Positions 3,460-12,402 of a stretch of 64,000 nt of DNA are shown one piece after another (position 1 is the first letter of the stretch; the number at the start of each line of letters is the position of its first letter). The translations under genes and the position numbers were made by a program. Source of the stretch: Candidatus Dormiibacterota bacterium (GTDB taxonomy: Bacteria; Chloroflexota; Dormibacteria; Aeolococcales; Aeolococcaceae); contig DASYKI010000016.1 in NCBI GenBank assembly GCA_035995545.1, forward strand, positions 664,599-728,598, given 5' to 3'. The notes below the pieces were generated by a model, which was not told where the DNA came from, ran no database searches, and was given only the letters and a program-made list of their open reading frames with translations.

Positions 3460-4311
3460 ATGCCAGGTGCAGTCGTGGTCACCGGTGCGTCGACCGGCAT
3501 CGGGCGCGCCATCGCGCTGCGGCTCAGCGCCGGTGGCATGCGCGTCTTCGCCGGGGTGCGTCGCCAGGAGGACGCCGACGCGCTGCGCCGCGAGTCGGCG
3601 CAGATCACCCCGCTGCTCCTCGACGTCACCGACCAGGCGTCTCTGGACCGAGCGGTCAGCACGGTGTCCGAGGCGGTGGGCGACGCCGGCCTGGCGGGCC
3701 TGGTCAACAACGCCGGCATCTCCGGCGGCGCGCCCACCGAGTTCTTCGCCGTCGACGACCTGCGCGCCATGCTGGAGGTCAACGTGGTCGGCGTCGTCGC
3801 CACCACCCAGGCGTTCCTGCCGCTGATCCGCACGGGGCGTGGACGCATCGTCTACATCGGTTCCATCGGCGGCCGCATGGCGGTGCCCTTCCTGGCCGCC
3901 TACTCGATGACCAAGGCGGCGGTGAGCGCGCTCTGCGACTCGCTGCGCGGCGAGCTGCGGCCCTGGGGCATCCACGTCGCGCTGATCGAGCCGGGCTCGA
4001 TCAAGACCCCGATCTGGGAGAAGGGCCTGCGCGGCATCGAGGACCAGATGGGACGCTGGCCCGCCGAGGCGATGCAGCTCTACGGCGACGTCATCCCCAA
4101 GATGCGCCGCATCACCGAGAAGACGGCGTCGCGCGCGATCGCGCCGGACAAGGTTGCCAAGGCCGTCGAGCACGCGCTCACGGCGTCGCGCCCGCACACC
4201 CGCTACGTGGTCGGCGCCGACGCGCGCGCCCAGGCCATCCTGCGCCGCGTCCCCGACCGCGCCCGCGACGCGATGATCGCACGCACCATCGGGCTGCAGA
4301 AGAAAACCTGA
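3460..4311 (+). CDS. SDR-family short-chain dehydrogenase/reductase
   Basis: ATG at 3460 (MPGAVVVTGASTGIGRA, Rossmann TGxxxGIG); YSMTKAAVSAL (YxxxK catalytic motif); the track ORF begins upstream at 3400 but the protein-like sequence starts at 3460. Confidence 0.8.
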   Translation: MPGAVVVTGASTGIGRAIALRLSAGGMRVFAGVRRQEDADALRRESAQITPLLLDVTDQASLDRAVSTVSEAVGDAGLAGLVNNAGISGGAPTEFFAVDDLRAMLEVNVVGVVATTQAFLPLIRTGRGRIVYIGSIGGRMAVPFLAAYSMTKAAVSALCDSLRGELRPWGIHVALIEPGSIKTPIWEKGLRGIEDQMGRWPAEAMQLYGDVIPKMRRITEKTASRAIAPDKVAKAVEHALTASRPHTRYVVGADARAQAILRRVPDRARDAMIARTIGLQKKT

Positions 4312-4341
4312 GCGGGGCTCTGGGGCGCCGCCCGTCATCGC

Positions 4342-4612
4342 GTGCCCGGTGCTAGCAGCCGCCGGGCCTCGCCTGCCGCGTGCCAGCAGCCGCCGGGTCC
4401 CCCCGCTCCCCGTGCTGGCAGCCGCCGAGTCACCCCGTACCCAGTGCTGGCAGCCGCCGGATCCCCGTGCCCGGTGCTGGCAGCCGCCGGATCCCCCATG
4501 CCCGGTGCTGGCAGCCGCCGGATCCCCGTGCCCGTGCTGGGAGCTGCCGAGTCCCCCGTAACCCCCGTGCTGGCAGCCGCCGGTCCCCCCGTACCCCGTG
4601 CTAGCAGCCGCC
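4342..4612. repeat. tandem direct-repeat array, ~9 copies of a ~30-bp unit (GTGCTGGCAGCCGCCGG + variable TCCCCGT(G/A)CCC tail)
   Basis: Read directly from the sequence. A 17-nt conserved core alternates with 12-16-nt related (not unique) tails. The array fills the convergent gap between the SDR (+) and the glycosidase-like gene (-) and overlaps that gene's last codons. Confidence 0.8.
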
Positions 4613-6724
4613 CGCAAAGTTCAACTGGTACACCGCGCCCGCACGAAGCGTGAGCATCACGCCCTGAGCCACCAGTTGCGCGGCAACGCGGTGCCCCGCC
4701 GAATCCACAGCACTCACCAGCCGCGAGCCCGCCATCGGCACCAGCAGGCGCCCCGGCACGGTGCTGGTCACCGTCCCATGCCAGTTCTGCGCGCAGGCCG
4801 GCGCCCGCACCACCAGCGCGTGCGCATGCGCGAAGGTCCGCGCCGTCACCGCCTTGCCCACCTCGTACTGCCACTCGCCCCCGGCAAGCGGCACCGGATG
4901 TCCCTGCCCCTTGATCGACGACAGCGACACCACCGCGCCCAACTGGTCCGTCAGCGCTGGCGTGATCGGCAAACCCCCAACCCAGGTCTTGCCGAAGTAC
5001 ATCGCCGGCGTGCCGTACACGGTGCTGGCGACGGTGTGCGGGATCACCGTGGTCGCGTCGACCTGCCAGCCGTCGCCGTCGATGAGCATGTCCGGGTTCA
5101 CCGCGGCGACCAGTGCCGCACGGCGATCCCACTCGGCTGTGCTCCAGGCGTCGTAGAGGCGCAGCGTGTCGGCCACCGCGGCGAACTGCGGCGCCGCCGC
5201 GCTGGCGTCGATCATCGCGTCGGGCCGCAGCCTGTGCGCCGAGCTGTGGATGGCGTCCATGTAGCGGTACAGCGCCAGCGCACCGTAGCCCCGCGCGGGA
5301 TTGCTGACCGTGGCCGGGATGTTGTACTGCCAGTCGAGCTTGAGCCCGTCGGCGGCCAATGCGTCGCCGCCCGAGCCCACCAGCGCCCCGACCGTTGCTG
5401 CCATCTCTGACTGGAACGACGTGGTGGTGGGGTCGATGAGGCGCTCGGGCGTGGCGGTGCGGGCCAGCTTGGCGGACAGCGGGATGGTGTCGATGCGGTG
5501 CGCCCACATCGGCCACCAGAGCAGGACGTGCAGTCCCTGGGCGTGCAGCTCGTCGATCAGCGCCCGCATCCCGGCGACGCCGCCGAAGCGCAGCGGGTCG
5601 GGCATGGGGTCGCCGATGCGCTCCTGCCAGCGCGAGTCGATGACCAGGGTGAAGTGGTCGACGTGGTACCGCGCCTTCCAGTCGGCGGCGAAGCTGCGCA
5701 CCCAGTCGGCGGTGAAGGCCGGGCTGCCGCGGAAGGCGTGCACGGCCATCTGCTCGCCCCAGGTGTCGACGATGGGCTCGCTCCACCACGCCGGGCGCGA
5801 GCCGGGCGGCGAAGCGACGGTGACCGCCTTCAGCCCCACCAGCGCGTCGTGGTAGGCGCGCAGCCCGGTCAGGGGGTCGGCGGCGAAGGTGACCACGAAG
5901 TCGGGGAAGCGCAGCATGCCCGCCTGGCCGGTGCCGGCGCCGAGGTCGGCCGTGGCGTCCACGCTGGCCAGCGGGTAGTCGATCGACACCGCGCCGTCGT
6001 GTCCCACCCGCATCGACGTCGCCGAGGGGACCTGGACCAGGCCGAGCCCCATCCAGCCGGGGGTGCCGCGGAGCTGCACCTGCAGCGGCGGCGGAGCGAA
6101 CGGGGTGCGGCCCACCGTCGACACCACCGGCGCCGGCGACACCGAGGTTGCCCGCGGGTCGGGCGTGTAGCCGTCCTGGATGGTGGTCATGTCCAGGCCG
6201 CGGTGGCCGTCGGCGAAGAAGCTGGGGGCGAGGGCGCGCTGCGGGCCGAGCGGCGCCGTGAACGAGACGGTGAAGCTGGACGGGCTCGGCGTCAGCGTCG
6301 CCTGGGAGAGGACGGTGCCGTCGGCGGCGACCATGGTGGTGGTCAGGACGTGGCCGGTCAGGGTGGTGTGGGCGTGGGCTCCGCTGGGGATGGCGGCGCG
6401 GCCGGCCAGGGCGCAGAGCGGCAGCGAGGTGTAGACGCGGCCGTCGGCCGAGGCCAGGCTGACCACCGCCGAATCGGGGTCGGCCCAGATCGCGTAGCCG
6501 GTCCCGGCGACGTGAAGCTCGGCGGCGCCCACCGCGGGGGTGACGTCGAAGCCCTCGAGGCGGTCCTCGGTGGGCTCGGCGGGAAGCGTGCGGGTGAAGG
6601 GATGCGCCTGGGCCACCCCGGCGACGCAGGCCCCGATGGTGACCACGGCGAACACCGCCGCACCGCGGTTGGCGCCGAGGCGCCGCGCGGTCGAGAGGAG
6701 GCGGGACGGGAGGGGTCTGCGCAT
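4601..6724 (-). CDS. secreted protein, putative glycoside-hydrolase-like (TIM-barrel) enzyme
   Basis: 707-aa ORF. The N-terminal signal peptide has a positively charged n-region, a hydrophobic core and a AQA cleavage-like site. The middle region (HFTLVIDSRWQ.., LHVLLWWPMW, LKLDWQYN) resembles clan GH-D-type (alpha/beta)8 glycosidases. The family assignment is not certain. Confidence 0.45.
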   Translation of the reverse strand: MRRPLPSRLLSTARRLGANRGAAVFAVVTIGACVAGVAQAHPFTRTLPAEPTEDRLEGFDVTPAVGAAELHVAGTGYAIWADPDSAVVSLASADGRVYTSLPLCALAGRAAIPSGAHAHTTLTGHVLTTTMVAADGTVLSQATLTPSPSSFTVSFTAPLGPQRALAPSFFADGHRGLDMTTIQDGYTPDPRATSVSPAPVVSTVGRTPFAPPPLQVQLRGTPGWMGLGLVQVPSATSMRVGHDGAVSIDYPLASVDATADLGAGTGQAGMLRFPDFVVTFAADPLTGLRAYHDALVGLKAVTVASPPGSRPAWWSEPIVDTWGEQMAVHAFRGSPAFTADWVRSFAADWKARYHVDHFTLVIDSRWQERIGDPMPDPLRFGGVAGMRALIDELHAQGLHVLLWWPMWAHRIDTIPLSAKLARTATPERLIDPTTTSFQSEMAATVGALVGSGGDALAADGLKLDWQYNIPATVSNPARGYGALALYRYMDAIHSSAHRLRPDAMIDASAAAPQFAAVADTLRLYDAWSTAEWDRRAALVAAVNPDMLIDGDGWQVDATTVIPHTVASTVYGTPAMYFGKTWVGGLPITPALTDQLGAVVSLSSIKGQGHPVPLAGGEWQYEVGKAVTARTFAHAHALVVRAPACAQNWHGTVTSTVPGRLLVPMAGSRLVSAVDSAGHRVAAQLVAQGVMLTLRAGAVYQLNFAGGC

Positions 6725-6751
6725 TTTCGGGGCGGGCGGTCGGTCAGTGGC

Positions 6752-8401
6752 TCAAAAGCTTGGAACGGAGAGATCGCTGCGAATGTATACGCGATCGAGG
6801 GTCGAGCGATAGACCTCCCGGTAACTCGACAGCAGCAGCGGCTGGATGTCCGAGAAGTAGGCGAGGTCGTCCTCCTCGGTCACGATTATCTCCGGCCTCA
6901 GCTGGGCCACCCGTTTCGTTACGCCTCCGTTGGATTGCAGGAGCGACTCGTTGTTGTAGATGGGCGGCGTCGGAAGCAGAACGGGCAGGTCGGCGAGAAG
7001 ATACGGCCAGGCGTCCGAGGACCACACCACCGCGCTGTGGCCGGCCAGTCCGTGCTCGCGGATCCACGTCGAGACCGCCGTGTCGGCGGGGGCGCGCAGG
7101 TCCCACTCGGCCTCCCAGGAGCTCCAGGTGTGCTGCCCCGTCCAGGCCTGGAAGGCGCCCACGTAGTAGGTCGACAGGTTGCGATAGGTGTTCATGCCAG
7201 AGCTGGCACCTTCCGGAATCCATTCCACTCCCGCCGAACGCGCCAGAACACCGGCCAACAGCAGTCCGCCGACCAGTGGCGCGGCGGTGAGCAGCCGGGC
7301 GCGGTTGCCGAGCATCGATCGCCACGCGTCGCGGCGGTCGGGCAGCCCGGCCACCAGGGCGAGGCAGACCGGCACCACGGTGGGGCCGAGGAAGTGCGCG
7401 AAGGGTTGCTGCGCCGCAGCCGGAACTGTCAGCGTCGCAATCGCCCACACGGCGAGCATCCAGCCGCCACCTGAACTCGACCTGAATCGCGCCAGCACGG
7501 CACCGGCGACGGCCGCGGCGATGCACAGCGCGAGGAGGCCGAGCAGCACGGGGCCGTGGGCGCCGGGCAGCGAGCTGGCGTTGTAGTCGCCGGTGTAGAA
7601 GCCGACCAGCGCGTACCACAGGGTGTGTGGTCCGACCAGGATGGCGAAGGGGATGGCCCATGCCAGGGTTGCGCCGACCACCGTGGCCGCGTAGGTGAGC
7701 AGGTGGCGCGGCCGCGCGGCGGGATGGACAAGCAGGATCAGCCCGACGGCCGCGGTGTCGACCAGCGCGGTCTGCTGGTAGCAGAGGGCCGTGGCGGCGA
7801 GCAATCCGGCCGCGACGGGCCAGAGGTTGCCCGCGGTGCGGCGTTCGTGGAGGCGGACGATGACGATGGCGGCCACCCACGACGCCGGCGCGATGAGCAG
7901 CGACTCCGGCAGGATCAGCTCGGCGTCGAAGAGGGGAAGGCCCAGCATGACCCCGGTGACGAGCACCGCAGTTGCTGCCTTCCATGGCACGAACAGGTGG
8001 CGCGCGACGTAGGCGACCGCCGCCAGCGCGATGGCCGCGAAGACGAAGGTGAGCAGGTGCAGCGCCGTCTCAGTGCTGCCCAGGGTGTGCACCACGCTGC
8101 CGACGGTGGCGAGGTGGAGCGGGGGCTTGTTGTTCCAGATGTCCTTGTAGGGCAGCTTGCCGCTGAGCATCTCGCGGCCGGTGGCGGCGTAGCCGGCCTC
8201 GTCGGTGTACCAGTGCGGCTCGACGAAGCTGGGCAGGCGGAGCAGGGCGAAGGCAGTCGCGCCGGGCAGCCACCACAGGCGGCGCAGGCGGGATGGGGCG
8301 TGCCGCGTGCCGCTGCGGGCCTGCGCCGCCGGTCCGCCGGCGTGCGGCGATGCCTCGGCTGCGGCTTCGGCGGGCGGAGCGGGTGGGGTGTCGGCGGGCA
8401 C
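6752..8401 (-). CDS. GT-C fold glycosyltransferase, PMT/ArnT-like (GT39/GT83-like), polyprenol-phosphate-sugar dependent
   Basis: Multi-TM protein with loop-1 DE motif (HWYTDEAGYAATGREMLSGKLPYKDIWNNKPPL). The N-terminal part of the 6752..8920 track ORF is low-complexity. The start is probably the GTG near 8401 (VPADTPPAPP..), giving a Pro/Ala-rich tail before TM1. Confidence 0.6.
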   Translation of the reverse strand: MPADTPPAPPAEAAAEASPHAGGPAAQARSGTRHAPSRLRRLWWLPGATAFALLRLPSFVEPHWYTDEAGYAATGREMLSGKLPYKDIWNNKPPLHLATVGSVVHTLGSTETALHLLTFVFAAIALAAVAYVARHLFVPWKAATAVLVTGVMLGLPLFDAELILPESLLIAPASWVAAIVIVRLHERRTAGNLWPVAAGLLAATALCYQQTALVDTAAVGLILLVHPAARPRHLLTYAATVVGATLAWAIPFAILVGPHTLWYALVGFYTGDYNASSLPGAHGPVLLGLLALCIAAAVAGAVLARFRSSSGGGWMLAVWAIATLTVPAAAQQPFAHFLGPTVVPVCLALVAGLPDRRDAWRSMLGNRARLLTAAPLVGGLLLAGVLARSAGVEWIPEGASSGMNTYRNLSTYYVGAFQAWTGQHTWSSWEAEWDLRAPADTAVSTWIREHGLAGHSAVVWSSDAWPYLLADLPVLLPTPPIYNNESLLQSNGGVTKRVAQLRPEIIVTEEDDLAYFSDIQPLLLSSYREVYRSTLDRVYIRSDLSVPSF

Positions 8402-8411
8402 GGGCGCTGTA

Positions 8412-9233
8412 GTATCCCCCGCCGATGTGTCCCGCCCGCCCTCGGCGACCCCGGTGACCACGGCGCCGCGCGCCCTGGTGGTCCCGCCCGCCCTGGAGCG
8501 GCGGCTGCCCGGGCTCAGCCTGGTCATGCCCTGCCACAACGAGTCGGAGAACCTGCGCTGGCTGTTGCCCCACGTCGCCGAGGTGATGCCGCGCCTCGCC
8601 GAGGCGTACGAGGTGGTCATCGTCGACGACGGCAGCACCGACGGCAGCGGGGACGTGGCGCGATCGCTGGCCGCGTCGCTGGGCATGGACCTGCAGGTGC
8701 TGCGGCACGAGGTGAAGAGCGGATACGGCATCACCGTCGCGGACGGGCTGCGGGCGACGCGGTTGGAGTACAGCGCGTTCACCGATGCCGACGGGCAGTT
8801 CGAGGTGGCCGACCTGTCGCTGCTGATCCCGCTGCTGGACCGGGCCGACTTCGTCGGCGGGTGGCGGGAGTCGCGGTCGGACGCGGCGATGCGGTCGGTG
8901 GTGAGCGGTGTGTTCAACACGCTGCTGCGCGTTCTCTACGGGCTTCGCGTCCGAGATGCGGACTGCGCGCTGAAGGTGATGCGGACGTCGTTCCTGCGCT
9001 CGATCGACATCGAGTCGCGGTCGGCGCTGATGAACGCCGAGCTCTACATCAAGGCGCAGCGCGGGGGGTGGCGGGTGCTGCAGGTGCCGGTGCCGCACCA
9101 TCCGCGGCAGCTCGGCGTGCGCAGCGGGGCGCGGCCACGGGCGATTGCGCGGGCGGTCAAGGAGCTTGTGCTGCTTCGCTTTCGGCTGGCGCGGAGTGAG
9201 CGGGGAAGGGGGCCGGGGAGCTCAGCGCGCTGA
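8412..9233 (+). CDS. GT2 polyprenol-phosphate sugar synthase (Ppm1/DPM1/GtrB-like)
   Basis: GT-A motifs LSLVMPCHNESENL, VVIVDDGSTDGS, FTDADGQF (DxD), DCALKVMR; the start is a GTG between 8412 and 8481; divergent from the GT-C gene with near-abutting starts. Confidence 0.75.
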   Translation, partial: VSPADVSRPPSATPVTTAPRALVVPPALERRLPGLSLVMPCHNESENLRWLLPHVAEVMPRLAEAYEVVIVDDGSTDGSGDVARSLAASLGMDLQVLRHEVKSGYGITVADGLRATRLEYSAFTDADGQFEVADLSLLIPLLDRADFVGGWRESRSDAAMRSVVSGVFNTLLRVLYGLRVRDADCALKVMRTSFLRSIDIESRSALMNAELYIKAQRGGWRVLQVPVPHHPRQLGVRSGARPRAIARAVKELVLLRFRLARSERGRGPGSSAR

Positions 9234-10170
9234 GGCGGACTGGAACCAGTCCAGGGTCTGGCGCAGGCCCTGCTCGATGGCGGTGTGCGCCTGCCAGTGC
9301 AGCCAGCGCCGGGCGCGGTTGGTGTCGAGGCAGCCGCGGCGCACCTCACCCTGGGCCGCTTCCTCGTGCAGTGGGGCGAGCCCGCTGCTGTGCAGGTTCG
9401 CCAGCGTGGTGACCACCGTGTCGACGCTGGTCTCGCGGCCGGTGCCGACGTTGACGGCGCCTGCGCGGTTGCTGCGCAATGCGGCGAGGTTGGCGGCGGC
9501 GACGTCGCCGACGAAGACGAAGTCGCGGGTCTGCAGGCCGTCGCCACGGATCACCGGCGCTTCACCGGCGAGCAGCTTGGTGCAGGAGATGGCCACAACT
9601 CCCGCCTCGCCGGTGCCGTCCTGCCTGGGCCCGTAGACGTTGCCGTATCGCAGCGCCAGGGTGCGCATGCCGGCGAGCCGGCGGAAGGACCCAAGGTAGG
9701 CCTCCTCGGCGGCCTTGCTGGCGCCGTACTGCGAGCGCGGCGCGGGTGTCAGGCTCTCGCGTGCGGGCAGGGTGCGCGCATCGCCATAGACGGCGCCGCC
9801 CGACGATGCGGTGACGATGCTCGGCACCTTCGCGTCGGCGGCAGCCTTGAAGAAGGCGATGCTGCTGGCCACCGCGGTGCGCACGTGGGTGGCGGGGTCG
9901 CGCAGCACCTTGTTGACACCGCCGCGCGCGGCGAGGTGGAGCACGGCGTCGGGCTTGAAGCGCAGCAGCGCGGTGGCGGTCGCGGGGTCGCCGCAGTCGG
10001 CTTCGAGGAGCTCGGCCTCGGCCGGCAGGGGGACGCCGCAGTCGTGCGAGAGGTCGTCGACGACCAGCACCTGGGTGCCCTCGGCGATCAGCGTCTCGAC
10101 GGTGTGGGAGCCGATGAAGCCCGCGCCGCCGCTGACGGCGACGCGGCGGGGGAGGGGGCGCGGGGTGGGG
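9222..10170 (-). CDS. NAD-dependent sugar epimerase/dehydratase (GalE-like)
   Basis: Carries the extended-SDR fingerprints VSGGAGFIGSH (Rossmann) and YGASKAAEE (YxxxK). It begins inside the 9222..11030 track ORF, probably at the GTG near 10170. Its 3' end overlaps the GT2 gene end by 12 bp. Confidence 0.75.
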
Positions 10171-10180
10171 GTGGCGCCCC

Positions 10181-11257
10181 TCAGCGCCACGCGGTGGCCC
10201 CGGCCTGGGCGGGCTTCGGCGCGGCGCCGGCGGCCGCTGCGGCTGCTGTCGCGCCTGCCCCCGCCGCCGCTGCCGTGTCGGCGGGGTCGTCCATCCGCTC
10301 GGGTTTGTCGCCGGCCATGGCGGCCGCGGCGGCGAGGCCGATGGGCAGGGTGACCGTGCCGCGCAGCAGCAGGGCCACGGTGGTGGCGATGCCGAACGGC
10401 GTCCCGGTGCGGAGCAGCAGGCCGACCACGATGGCGTCGGCCGGGCCGACCCCGAAGGGCAGGGCGCTGAGGCTGCCGCCGGCCTGGCTGAGCGCGTAGA
10501 CCCCGATCGCCGCGGCGAGGCCGTCGAGGTCGCCGCCGCCGAGCCCGGCGACGAGCAGGATGACCTGCAGCCCGCTGAGCACGAAGACCACCAGCGTGGT
10601 CAGGGTGAAGGTGAGCAGCAGGGGCGTGTCGCCGGCCAGGACCGCGACCTCGCTGCCCATGCGGCCGATGGCGCGGGTCCTCGTGCGCAGGAGCGGCAGC
10701 CGGGCCGCCGCGTTGAGCACGGCGGTGGATGCGACGCGGGCCTGCGGAACGTGGGCGATCGTCCAGGGCACGGCGATGGCCAGCCCGGCGCCGATGCACA
10801 GGCCGGCGACCACTCCCGGGCCGCCGATGGTCGGGCCGAAGAAGGCGGCGCCCGCCGCCAGCAGGAGGGCGAAGCTGAGGATGCGCTCGTAGACGACGGT
10901 GGCCACCCCGGTTGTGGCGGGGATGTCGTCGTCGCGGCGCCAGATCCAGGCGCGGACCAGGTCGCCACTGGCGGCGGGGGTCAGGCTGGAGAGCGTCTGC
11001 CCCGCGAGCTGGGCCTTGACCAGGCTCCACCAGCGGGGGCGCTGCTGCAGTCTCGCCAGCACGAGGCGCGTTCTCAGCGCGCGGACCAGGGTGATCGGGA
11101 CGTTGAGGCCCAGGGTGACGAGCAGCGCGGGGATGCTCAGCCGACCGAGGGCGACCCAGACGTGGGCCGGGCCGGCGCGCCAGAAGAGCACGCCGAGGAC
11201 CCCCACACCGACCAGGGCCGCCACGCGGTGCGAGGTGACCAGCGTTCGCAGGCGCAT
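10181..11257 (-). CDS. flippase-like polytopic membrane protein (lysylphosphatidylglycerol-synthase TM-region-like family)
   Basis: 358 aa with ~8 TM helices and an Ala-rich C-terminal tail. This family is commonly encoded next to GT2 polyprenol-phosphate glycosyltransferases. It lies directly upstream of, and is likely co-transcribed with, the epimerase. Confidence 0.55.
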   Translation of the reverse strand: MRLRTLVTSHRVAALVGVGVLGVLFWRAGPAHVWVALGRLSIPALLVTLGLNVPITLVRALRTRLVLARLQQRPRWWSLVKAQLAGQTLSSLTPAASGDLVRAWIWRRDDDIPATTGVATVVYERILSFALLLAAGAAFFGPTIGGPGVVAGLCIGAGLAIAVPWTIAHVPQARVASTAVLNAAARLPLLRTRTRAIGRMGSEVAVLAGDTPLLLTFTLTTLVVFVLSGLQVILLVAGLGGGDLDGLAAAIGVYALSQAGGSLSALPFGVGPADAIVVGLLLRTGTPFGIATTVALLLRGTVTLPIGLAAAAAMAGDKPERMDDPADTAAAAGAGATAAAAAAGAAPKPAQAGATAWR

Positions 11258-11339
11258 CGTGGCCGCAGCATAGCCTGCCCCCGGCTTTCCGAGCGTGGCG
11301 CCATCTTGGGGGGTGCTAGAGTAGCCGCCCGGCGGCCGG

Positions 11340-11414
11340 GCCCAAGTAGCTCAGAGGTAGAGCAACGCCTTGGTAAGGCGTAGGCCGTGGGTTCGATTCC
11401 CACCTTGGGCTCCA
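11340..11414 (+). tRNA. tRNA-Thr (anticodon GGT), CCA encoded
   Basis: Cloverleaf folded by hand. Acceptor GCCCAAG/CTTGGGC, D-arm TAGCTCAGAGGTAGAGCA, anticodon stem-loop ACGCC-TTGGTAA-GGCGT (GGU), variable loop AGGCC, T-arm GTGGG-TTCGATT-CCCAC, discriminator T, then CCA. Confidence 0.85.
11365..11414 (+). repeat. 50-bp direct repeat, copy 1 (3' two-thirds of tRNA-Thr GGT) - candidate attL
   Basis: The sequence ACGCCTTGGTAAGGCGTAGGCCGTGGGTTCGATTCCCACCTTGGGCTCCA is identical at 26716-26765. Confidence 0.8.
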
Positions 11415-11970
11415 CCTGTCGCAACAGGGGAAAACGAGCTCACAGGCAGGGCTGCATCGCGTCCGTCCGCCCCATCCGCACCCGTCGGAGGGGTCTGGAA
11501 TGCGTGGGATGTTGACCTAGAAGAGCTGGGTCAACGCCTTCGACGATATTGACCTTCGAGGAAGGTCACGGAGGACGGGCGTCACAGCTCCGAGCGTCTC
11601 GCAGCCGAGTCGGATGCCGCTGAGCACTGGAACGCGACCGGCTTTGGGAGGAACGACGCACTCAAGCTACGAGCGAGAGGTGCTGTGACACGATCGCGGT
11701 CGACGACGGGGCAATGCCGCTGGGCATGCGCCGCGTCAAGGAGCGCCGCGATTTTCGTCACCGATGTGGTCAGCGAGCTGCTCATCAACGTGGTGCTGTT
11801 CGGCGTCTGGGCGCTGACTGTACACGGCTTCTTCTGGCCCGGCTTGGTGCTGGCCGGACGGAGCGTCGGCCTGGTGATGCACGCATGCACCGCGTCCGGA
11901 CAGCGCGATCACAAGTGGCGAGGTCGAGCGCGAGATGGAGCGACTGCGGCGAGGCGCTCGGGACGCGCAA

Positions 11971-11984
11971 ATCTGAGCCGGCTC
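11971..11984. terminator. perfect 14-bp palindrome CTGAGCCGGCTCAG at the 3' end of the PNPOx-like gene (possible bidirectional hairpin)
   Basis: The palindrome is read directly from the sequence and overlaps the stop codon of the 11983..12402 minus-strand gene. No U-tract is present, so terminator function is an inference. Confidence 0.3.
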
Positions 11985-12402
11985 AGGCCTCGGGGATGCG
12001 CCGTCCGGTGACCTCGTCGACGCGAATGCGGATCCACCGACCGCCTGCGGACGCGGCCCACGAGCGCAGCGGCCCCCGCCGCAGCCGTTCCAACTCGTGA
12101 GGGTCGGTGACCTCACTCGCGGTGCCACGCGCGATGACGCTCCAGCCCGCGTGGTAGAGCGGGCGCTGGTCATCAACCTCGAAGACGACCGCTGCACCGC
12201 CGGCGAGCGCACTGAGCTTGGTGCCTTCCATCGACCAGAAGACGATGGTGTCGGGAGTCTCCGCCAGGTAGTTCACCGGGACGATGTGGGGGCGGCCATC
12301 ATGGATGAAGCCCACACGTCCGACGAACGATCCGCGCTGCAGGAGACCGGTCGAATCCTCGCGTGTCAGCGTCTCGATGTGCGATTGAGAGTCATCCTGC
12401 AT
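11983..12402 (-). CDS. pyridoxamine 5'-phosphate oxidase family protein (PNPOx-like FMN/F420-binding split barrel)
   Basis: Protein-like sequence from MQDDSQSHIETLTREDSTGLLQRGSFVGRVGFI.. with the characteristic HIVPVNY..GxxxR-type pattern. The track ORF start at 12504 looks too far upstream. Confidence 0.55.
   Translation of the reverse strand: MQDDSQSHIETLTREDSTGLLQRGSFVGRVGFIHDGRPHIVPVNYLAETPDTIVFWSMEGTKLSALAGGAAVVFEVDDQRPLYHAGWSVIARGTASEVTDPHELERLRRGPLRSWAASAGGRWIRIRVDEVTGRRIPEA

Follow-up and report, generated by a model that had tools for sequence, protein, structure and literature searches.

Putative polyprenyl-phosphate-dependent glycosylation genes of a Dormibacteria genome and the 25-bp spacer between two of their start codons

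The DNA analysed here, referred to as the window, is a stretch of 64,000 nucleotides with a G+C content of 72% (contig DASYKI010000016.1 of an uncultured soil bacterium of Candidatus Dormibacterota), and it contains five genes packed between positions 4601 and 11257 (Table 1), as supported by an analysis of the reading frames based on G+C at third codon positions (GC3). They encode a GT2 glycosyltransferase and a transferase of GT-C fold, which are transcribed divergently from almost abutting start codons, an exported or membrane-anchored protein of 707 amino acids (aa) resembling GH36 glycosidases in fold, a GalE-like epimerase and a membrane protein of the PF03706 'flippase-like' family. The same genes, with the lengths listed in Table 1, were called independently on a public contig of identical sequence (L001). 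We favour, with moderate confidence, the view that this locus specifies a Dormibacteria-specific variant of 'three-component' extracytoplasmic glycosylation, driven by a bidirectional promoter, in which the individual steps are assigned from family and fold matches.

The PF03706 gene is the first of a two-gene operon and is overlapped by the epimerase start by 10 bp, the 3' end of the GT2 gene runs 12 bp into the convergent epimerase gene, and the 707-aa gene starts 27 bp after the GT-C stop codon. Two long overlapping open reading frames (ORFs), 6752-8920 on the minus strand and 8205-9233 on the plus strand, were judged to be antisense artefacts, because both frames have a common third-codon phase.

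Table 1. Genes and other features of the locus and its borders (window coordinates; for minus-strand genes the start is given first).
Feature	Position	Strand	Length and support
PF03706 'flippase-like' membrane protein	11257-10181	-	358 aa; Pfam 103.5 bits, TIGR00374 56.6 bits
GalE-like extended-SDR 4-epimerase	10190-9222	-	322 aa; PF01370 162.7 bits
GT2 glycosyltransferase	8427-9233	+	268 aa; PF00535 78.6 bits
GT-C-fold transferase	8401-6752	-	549 aa; PMT_2 21.7 bits, sub-threshold
GH36-like exported/membrane-anchored protein	6724-4601	-	707 aa; fold match only
TATGCT, -10-like hexamer	11267-11272	-	9 nt upstream of the PF03706 ATG at 11257; no Shine-Dalgarno
tRNA-Thr (GGT)	11340-11414	+	83 bp from the PF03706 start
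Tandem array	4327-4612		31-bp GC-rich unit, ~8.7 copies, 79% match; 93-bp super-period, 3.1 copies
Segment of lower G+C	11415-12400		~1 kb; G+C 0.665-0.68 vs ~0.72 around

Start codons and spacer of the divergent genes

The initial annotation had placed the GT-C start at a GTG near 8401 and the GT2 start at a GTG within 8412-8481, about 10-80 bp apart, and had concluded that the promoters must overlap coding or leader sequence. GTG 8401 is indeed the most downstream usable GT-C start, since the next in-frame start, ATG 8170, falls past the invariant HWYTDE motif, which would be lost. On the GT2 side, the candidate starts that are in frame and precede the first beta-strand of the catalytic domain are GTG 8427, 8454 and 8478; position 8412, named as the lower end of the proposed range, is GTA and no start codon. 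From the candidates available on both sides, the gap measures 25 bp for the called starts and 76 bp at most, which agrees with the spacing and the promoter overlap put forward; a normal intergenic region of more than 150 bp, which the annotation had named as the finding that would speak against it, is not there. In a related locus (L002, with a GT-C protein ~70% identical) stop codons permit only one start per side, 23 bp apart, and a gap of 23 bp between the two starts is found in four orthologous loci, L002 among them. The upstream GT-C starts 8461 and 8527, which would overlap the GT2 gene, were ruled out by the stop codons of L002 and by the unconserved N-terminal extension that they would add.

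An alignment of five orthologous loci revealed that the 25-bp spacer (8402-8426) is near-invariant, with the sequence CGGCG(G/C)GGGATACTACAGC(G/C)(C/T)C(C/G), and that the adjoining coding DNA for both N-termini is hypervariable, of unequal length and hard to align at all. The element is unique in the window and is not palindromic. In its centre, TAGTAT (8410-8415, plus strand, GT2 side) overlaps GATACT (8416-8411, minus strand, GT-C side) in such a way that the -11A and -7T of each hexamer pair reciprocally. According to the summaries of Warman et al. (2021) given in PMC10268837 and PMC12825309, the -10 elements of symmetric bidirectional promoters overlap, -11A and -7T being paired reciprocally, and the divergent transcription starts lie 7-25 bp apart, most commonly 18 bp. 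TAGTAT/GATACT has this pairing of -10 elements, and the pattern is also present in three more distant loci (L052, L079 and L089). Transcription starts are predicted, by analogy, at ~8422 (plus strand) and ~8404 (minus strand), 18 bp apart, with leaders of 5 and 3 nt, and we propose that the spacer may be the core of a symmetric bidirectional promoter.

The distant loci keep the architecture while the spacer sequence differs: L052 has a 24-bp spacer with TATCAT/GATGAT and L079 a spacer of ~37 bp with TATGAT. The tightest version of the divergent arrangement is that of L089 (689-711), where a 17-bp spacer sets the start codons exactly 18 bp apart around TACCAT/CATGGT, so that, under the 18-bp rule, both mRNAs would be perfectly leaderless. 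The GT2 protein of L089 is 66% identical to that of the window, and its divergent partner is a 421-aa protein without a Pfam match, followed by a PF03706 gene.

Hexamers of the form TANNNT are over-represented 6-10 nt upstream of start candidates in the window and the fetched loci with an overall G+C of at least 0.62 (~1.2 Mb in all), with counts of 31, 21, 18, 16 and 18 at these distances against a background of ~6 and a peak at 6 nt, which suggests that leaderless or near-leaderless mRNAs seem to be common in Dormibacteria. Other examples in the window precede GTG 54680 (plus strand, spacing 7) and GTG 19274 (minus strand, spacing 9), and the operon of the PF03706 and epimerase genes may have a near-leaderless start of its own, considering the hexamer upstream of its first ATG (Table 1).

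The 23-25-bp spacer could alternatively be mainly a regulator operator or a translation signal, the real promoters being inside the neighbouring coding regions. At least 20 of 23 spacer positions are conserved, which exceeds the need of a -10 hexamer alone, and two further points tell against a promoter: no -35 element was found at the spacer, a scan of 8000-8800 for consensus -35/-10 promoters and terminators being empty, and the minus-strand GATACT has no -12T. The empty scan was not taken as contradicting a -10-only promoter, because such an outcome is expected at 72% GC. Moreover, the distant loci retain only the spacing and a central TANNNT-type hexamer, the geometry of the spacer matches the published 18-bp rule exactly, the element is single and non-palindromic, and no usable Shine-Dalgarno sequence is present at a functional distance from the GT2 or the GT-C start. 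An operator or translation signal is consequently regarded as rather improbable, although it is the strongest of the alternatives that we weighed.

In the bidirectional promoter model, a single symmetric promoter would drive both the GT2 gene and the operon of the GT-C and GH36-like genes, giving two mRNAs with leaders of 3-5 nt and no Shine-Dalgarno sequence, and, with one binding site for RNA polymerase between them, the two arms would be in competition. It would share with the published symmetric promoters the overlapping -10 elements, the paired -11A/-7T and predicted starts 18 bp apart, and differ from them in that both products would be protein-coding mRNAs, leaderless or nearly so, at 72% GC and with no recognisable -35 element, the starts being predicted from the sequence; the arrangement of the window is, in addition, conserved across related genomes. 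A literature search on leaderless bidirectional promoter pairs yielded a general review only.

Encoded proteins and the probable sugar

The GT2 protein, a DPM1/PpgS/ArnC-type enzyme, carries the motifs VDDGS and DAD and lacks membrane helices, as do PpgS and the enzymes of DPM1 type. Its best NCBIfam matches (ArnC, MftF, the haloarchaeal dolichyl-phosphate hexose transferase, PpgS and AglJ) are all far under the cutoffs, the PpgS model, which is among the four best, scoring 47.9 bits against a cutoff of 370. The matching structures are those of ArnC (9bhc/8vxh; the best, E ~3e-13), DPMS (5mlz) and GtrB (5ekp). The protein is thus predicted to be a polyprenyl-phosphate sugar synthase, the activity that the initial annotation had assigned to it and that the matches to ArnC, DPMS, PpgS and GtrB suggest.

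The GT-C protein has ~12-13 membrane helices, a C-terminal alpha/beta domain (~residues 400-549) and, in the first outer loop, the invariant HWYTDE motif, whose D67 and E68 would mark the catalytic region, judging from family and fold; the structure model (pLDDT 85.1) points to a GT-C fold whose first outer loop would hold a catalytic acidic residue. At the sequence level, the Pfam match to PMT_2 (PF13231) stays below the gathering score of 26.1 bits, no NCBIfam model matches, and a profile of 32 family sequences retrieved no PDB chain even at E 1. In Foldseek comparisons ArnT ranks first (E 3e-7, TM 0.50, 18% identity; 15-18% across comparisons), and the matches spread over ALG3, PIG-M, ArnT, Pmt4 and PimE, the protein clustering with none of them. 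All top matches use polyprenyl-monophosphate sugar donors, which fits a partnership with the GT2 protein.

Membership of GT39 (PMT) was rejected, as PF02366, PMT_4TMC and MIR are absent, PF13231 is sub-threshold and the NCBIfam and PDB profile searches were empty; so was membership of GT83 (ArnT), given the fold match only, the empty profile search and the absence of arnA, arnB and arnD nearby. The description of this enzyme as PMT/ArnT-like has therefore to be given up, since it falls into neither family. It does not cluster firmly with a characterised lipid-modifying enzyme either, nor does the GT2 protein cluster with an unrelated pathway, the combination that had been named as fatal to the proposed glycosylation locus.

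A scan of one genome per species gave 175 confirmed GT-C relatives, nearly all in metagenome-assembled genomes (MAGs) of Dormibacteria. Several contigs of the family (L008, L009, L014, L029, L057, L006, L012 and L085) bear record titles of other groups (Candidatus Angelobacter, Acidiferrales, Saccharimonadales or 'uncultured Actinomycetes'), probably owing to mislabelling or mis-binning of the MAGs and not to horizontal transfer.

The epimerase, correctly recognised as GalE-like from the start, has short UDP-glucose 4-epimerases as its best PDB matches (4zrm, 2p5u and 7ys8), and it scores 146.5 bits against the GalE equivalog TIGR01179, below the cutoff of 262.3. Its segment QGEVRRGCLD aligns with KGDVRKSILD and PGDIKHSLAD, placing a glycine opposite the serine of 4zrm, 7ys8 and 6dnt, at what we take to be the substrate 'gatekeeper' position. 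This position is occupied by Tyr299 in E. coli GalE, Cys307 in human GALE and Ser306 in WbpP, enzymes active on N-acetylhexosamines having serine. The small residue found here appears compatible with N-acetylated substrates. Together with the fold of the 707-aa protein, which is an independent hint, the epimerase leads us to consider, with moderate confidence, that the transferred sugar is probably galacto-configured, i.e., galactose (Gal), N-acetylgalactosamine (GalNAc) or galactosamine (GalN).

The PF03706 protein is polytopic and consists of a stand-alone MprF-TM/YbhN/TIGR00374 'flippase-like' domain (residues 14-308 of 358), which bears out the family label that it had been given. Identity with MprF was rejected, since only PF03706 is present, without the C-terminal aminoacyl-phosphatidylglycerol synthase domain, and the relatives are all stand-alone proteins of ~320-350 aa. 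A literature search on PF03706/LPG_synthase_TM proteins as sugar-lipid flippases found no functional study.

In the AlphaFold2 model of the 707-aa protein (pLDDT 89.4), a hydrophobic N-terminal helix (20-38) is followed by a beta-sandwich, a (beta/alpha)8 barrel and a C-terminal beta-sandwich, which are the three domains of the GH36 fold. The best Foldseek matches are structures of the GH36 alpha-galactosaminidase of Flavonifractor plautii (8x1b/9ayu/9awt; best E 9.5e-25, TM 0.53-0.59), and further ones are GH36 alpha-galactosidases and then GH31 enzymes. Membership of GH36 is not seen at the sequence level: no Pfam model, those of Melibiase/GH36 included, and no NCBIfam model matches, and a profile search of the PDB returned only marginal GH31 fragments (E 0.045), among them a weak match to a GH31 alpha-galactosidase. 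The residues K462-x-D464-W465 (K462-L-D464 here), D363, D525, D549 and D551 do not vary among 41 family members, and by motif and numbering they parallel those reported for the active site of the F. plautii enzyme (FpGalNase), K461, D463, Y464, D346/D347 and D532 (PMC11762096). The protein has in common with GH36 glycosidases such as FpGalNase and the alpha-galactosidases the three-domain architecture, and it may share with FpGalNase a K-x-D motif at equivalent positions; it differs from these enzymes in its low identity (13%), in matching no GH36/Melibiase model and in being encoded in a biosynthetic operon beside a GT-C gene. The N-terminal helix and the GH36/GH31-type fold of the model agree with the secreted glycosidase-like protein of the initial annotation, and we predict a GH36-like glycosidase or transglycosylase. 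A possible lipoprotein signal (IGAC, ~residue 33) was discarded, since the family consensus does not keep the cysteine. The family, which was found only in Dormibacteria, is broader than the glycosylation cluster.

Proposed pathway, alternatives and conservation of the linkage

We propose that the GalE-like epimerase would convert UDP-N-acetylglucosamine or UDP-glucose to a UDP-galacto-sugar, probably UDP-GalNAc or UDP-Gal, which the soluble, membrane-associated GT2 protein would load onto polyprenyl phosphate. The PF03706 protein, as gene context suggests, may then bring the lipid-linked sugar to the membrane's outer face, where the GT-C protein would pass it to an acceptor of the envelope, and the co-transcribed GH36-like exported enzyme may trim, release or transglycosylate a linkage of alpha-galactoside type. 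The stereochemistry would be coherent, as an inverting GT2 would form a beta-linked lipid donor and an inverting GT-C would turn it into an alpha-linked product, the type of linkage on which the retaining enzymes of clan GH-D act.

The initial annotation had protein O-mannosylation as its frame, and a PMT-like transfer of the sugar by the GT-C protein to serine or threonine residues of secreted or surface proteins would be an alternative; protein O-glycosylation is, though, one of several possible targets. Pmt4 is among the fold matches, but ALG3, PIG-M and ArnT score equal or above it, the GT-C protein contains none of the PMT domains searched for and its profile retrieved nothing from the PDB, and both the co-operonic GH36-like enzyme and the clusters with several GT-C paralogs described below fit the assembly of a glycan or lipoglycan better. 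We therefore regard transfer to protein as unlikely.

Equally unlikely, in our view, is an ArnT-like lipid modification, in which the head group decorated by the GT-C protein would be that of a lipid or glycolipid in the membrane, and this lipid, instead of the donor, would be the target of the PF03706 protein. ArnT is the best fold match, but no relation to it is detectable at the sequence level, the genes of the 4-amino-4-deoxy-L-arabinose pathway (ArnA/B/D) are not in the cluster, and nothing in lipid A-type modification corresponds to the GH36-like partner.

The conservation of gene linkage is an argument for a pathway common to these genes. We compared the window proteins by tblastn with 85 GT-C loci, with flanks of 8 kb and some short contigs. 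The order of the five genes is repeated in L002, L006, L007 and L008, whose GT-C proteins are 60-70% identical, and L052 retains the divergent GT2 and GT-C genes and the 707-aa gene. A GT2 gene is present in the flank of 46 of the 85 loci: directly upstream and co-directional as a separate ORF (27 loci), directly upstream and fused with GT-C in one ORF (seven loci, e.g., P0095, 763 aa), divergent and adjacent (seven loci) or nearby in other positions (five loci). The PF03706 gene is linked to the epimerase, GT2 and GT-C genes in four layouts, which are the window type (also L002 and L006-L008), L005, L083 and L091/L092; in L091 the identity to the window proteins is 41% for PF03706, 63% for the epimerase, 64% for GT2 and 40% for GT-C. 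As the linkage persists through rearrangement and fusion, it constitutes strong sequence evidence that the GT2, GT-C, epimerase and PF03706 proteins would share a pathway, and the repeated gene order, the recurring arrangements and the seven fusions sustain the initial view of one functional module, which had been read as a coherent set for donor synthesis, flipping, transfer and trimming. That the five genes are mere neighbours without a common pathway, as the unrelated housekeeping or regulatory flanks and the members of some families that occur alone might suggest, is very improbable in view of a co-occurrence that survives rearrangement down to ~40% identity, of the seven GT2::GT-C fusions, of the 10-bp overlap suggesting translational coupling and of the other gaps of only 27 and 25 bp.

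L031 (4673-12038) and ~27 similar loci have three GT-C-type genes, namely one of the family studied here and two for PMT_2/DUF2142-like proteins of ~400 aa, together with a GT2 gene, two SDR epimerase-like genes and no PF03706 gene, which suggests that several GT-C enzymes assemble a glycan outside the cell. With this L004/L031 type counted in, the components recur in at least four arrangements other than that of the window (the others being those of L005, L083 and L091).

Some observations count against the proposed pathway. All sequences compared come from MAGs. No acceptor gene is identifiable in the cluster, and the flanks are unrelated to it; 39 of the 85 GT-C loci, some contigs being short, have no GT2 gene within 8 kb. 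The epimerase and the GT2 protein are far under every NCBIfam equivalog cutoff, for which reason the sugar is not established. The PF03706 protein is a candidate flippase for the lipid-linked sugar by gene context and family label, and no GT2::PF03706 fusion was found among 43 close homologs or, in an exhaustive search, among the best 150 representatives. The parallel between K462/D464 and K461/D463 of FpGalNase is drawn from motif and residue numbering, and distant homologs of the 707-aa protein (37-45% identical, in L086, L087 and L088) are encoded by stand-alone genes in unrelated metabolic neighbourhoods, so that this protein is not obligatorily coupled to the glycosylation system.

The cluster is bordered by a tRNA gene at one end and by a tandem repeat at the other (Table 1). 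The repeat occupies the convergent intergenic region between an SDR gene (end at 4311) and the 707-aa gene, overlapping the last codons of the latter, and the flank on this side contains genes for CysS, a SpoU methylase, an EamA transporter, a GNAT protein and the SDR. On the other side, the tRNA gene is transcribed away from the PF03706 gene, and the segment of lower G+C, without a confident GC3-supported gene, separates it from a LuxR-type response regulator, in a flank that also encodes a GAF histidine kinase, a USP and a Pat-like acetyltransferase. A mobile island between tRNA and tandem repeat was considered; such an origin is not indicated, because the cluster and one flank (SDR, EamA, SpoU and CysS) are syntenic in L002. 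In L002 (1-6887) the PF03706 side adjoins, instead of the tRNA and two-component genes, a gene for a giant protein (>3338 aa; fn3, RHS-repeat and DUF6531 matches), a possible surface-protein neighbour.

Relation to known systems and implications

The compactness of the locus had been taken as a sign of a distinct system, by contrast with the unlinked ppm1 and pmt genes of actinobacterial protein O-mannosylation. This comparison is not the appropriate one, because the host belongs to Candidatus Dormibacterota and is not an actinobacterium (the GT-C protein is identical to a hypothetical protein of a Candidatus Dormibacteraeota MAG, and its relatives are nearly all from Dormibacteria), and compactness alone is not distinctive, because linked GT2 and GT-C genes are normal in three-component systems. 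In these, the genes are usually clustered, auxiliary epimerases are possible and the flippase is of the GtrA/SMR-type or MATE families (PMC11127046).

The logic is the same in GtrA/GtrB/Gtr* of Shigella and Salmonella, in CsbB/GtcA/YfhO and in the Citrobacter pentofuranose system, founder of GT136: a cytoplasmic polyprenyl-phosphate-sugar synthase, a proposed flippase and an extracytoplasmic GT-C transferase. In the window, the GT2 protein would be the synthase, although the two membrane helices at the C-terminus of GtrB and ArnC are missing from it, whereas a GtrA/SMR or MATE flippase is absent. The only other membrane protein is the PF03706 one, and a small GtrA-like gene would not fit in, because the gaps between the five genes are at most 27 bp. 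The GT-C protein, moreover, falls outside all characterised families, its gene is co-transcribed with that of a GH36-like exported enzyme, and the host is a Dormibacterota member.

By analogy, the nearest specific counterpart is the PpgS/Rv3632/Rv3779 galactosamine pathway of mycobacteria. In M. tuberculosis, GalE1 (Rv3634c) is the likely source of UDP-GalNAc, and Rv3632 is a small GtrA-like membrane protein. PpgS (Rv3631), which has no membrane helices, makes polyprenyl-phosphate-GalNAc from UDP-GalNAc, helped by a small membrane protein, and the GT-C Rv3779 transfers GalN/GalNAc to a wall polysaccharide, as summarised in PMC3485146 from Skovierova et al. (2010). In contrast to the locus described here, which has no Rv3632-type protein, mycobacteria have their GT2 gene (Rv3631) unlinked to the GT-C gene (Rv3779), and arabinogalactan is not expected in Dormibacterota. 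ArnC/ArnT (GT2 and GT83) provide the best GT2 relative of solved structure and the best GT-C Foldseek match, respectively, and also use a polyprenyl-monophosphate sugar donor, but the GT-C protein has no sequence-level match to ArnT and the remaining arn pathway is absent.

What would distinguish the locus from known schemes is the PF03706 flippase candidate, the unclassified GT-C protein, the co-operonic GH36-like enzyme, the host lineage and the conserved promoter of bidirectional leaderless type. A more far-reaching version, according to which Dormibacteria build part of their envelope outside the cell from a polyprenyl-phosphate galacto-sugar, using a new GT-C family of the CAZy classification, with PF03706 as a third class of flippase, a new family of clan GH-D and a leaderless bidirectional promoter, is advanced tentatively, as we believe it more probably wrong than right. 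If true, stand-alone PF03706 (YbhN/MprF-TM) proteins would be a previously unrecognised class of lipid-linked-sugar flippases, and a GH-D family would be dedicated to the remodelling of the product.

A literature search on the cell envelope or glycosylation of Dormibacterota found nothing useful. These findings do not overturn current concepts. They do propose a testable role for stand-alone PF03706/YbhN proteins, and they bring up, in the GT-C and GH36-like proteins, two protein families unclassified by current sequence libraries. The 23-25-bp spacer is a natural test case for a symmetric bidirectional promoter that would drive two leaderless protein-coding mRNAs, a model to which the compensating hexamer changes in related genomes lend evolutionary support. 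The module and the at least 175 related GT-C genes thus offer a concrete entry point to the surface glycans of Dormibacterota.

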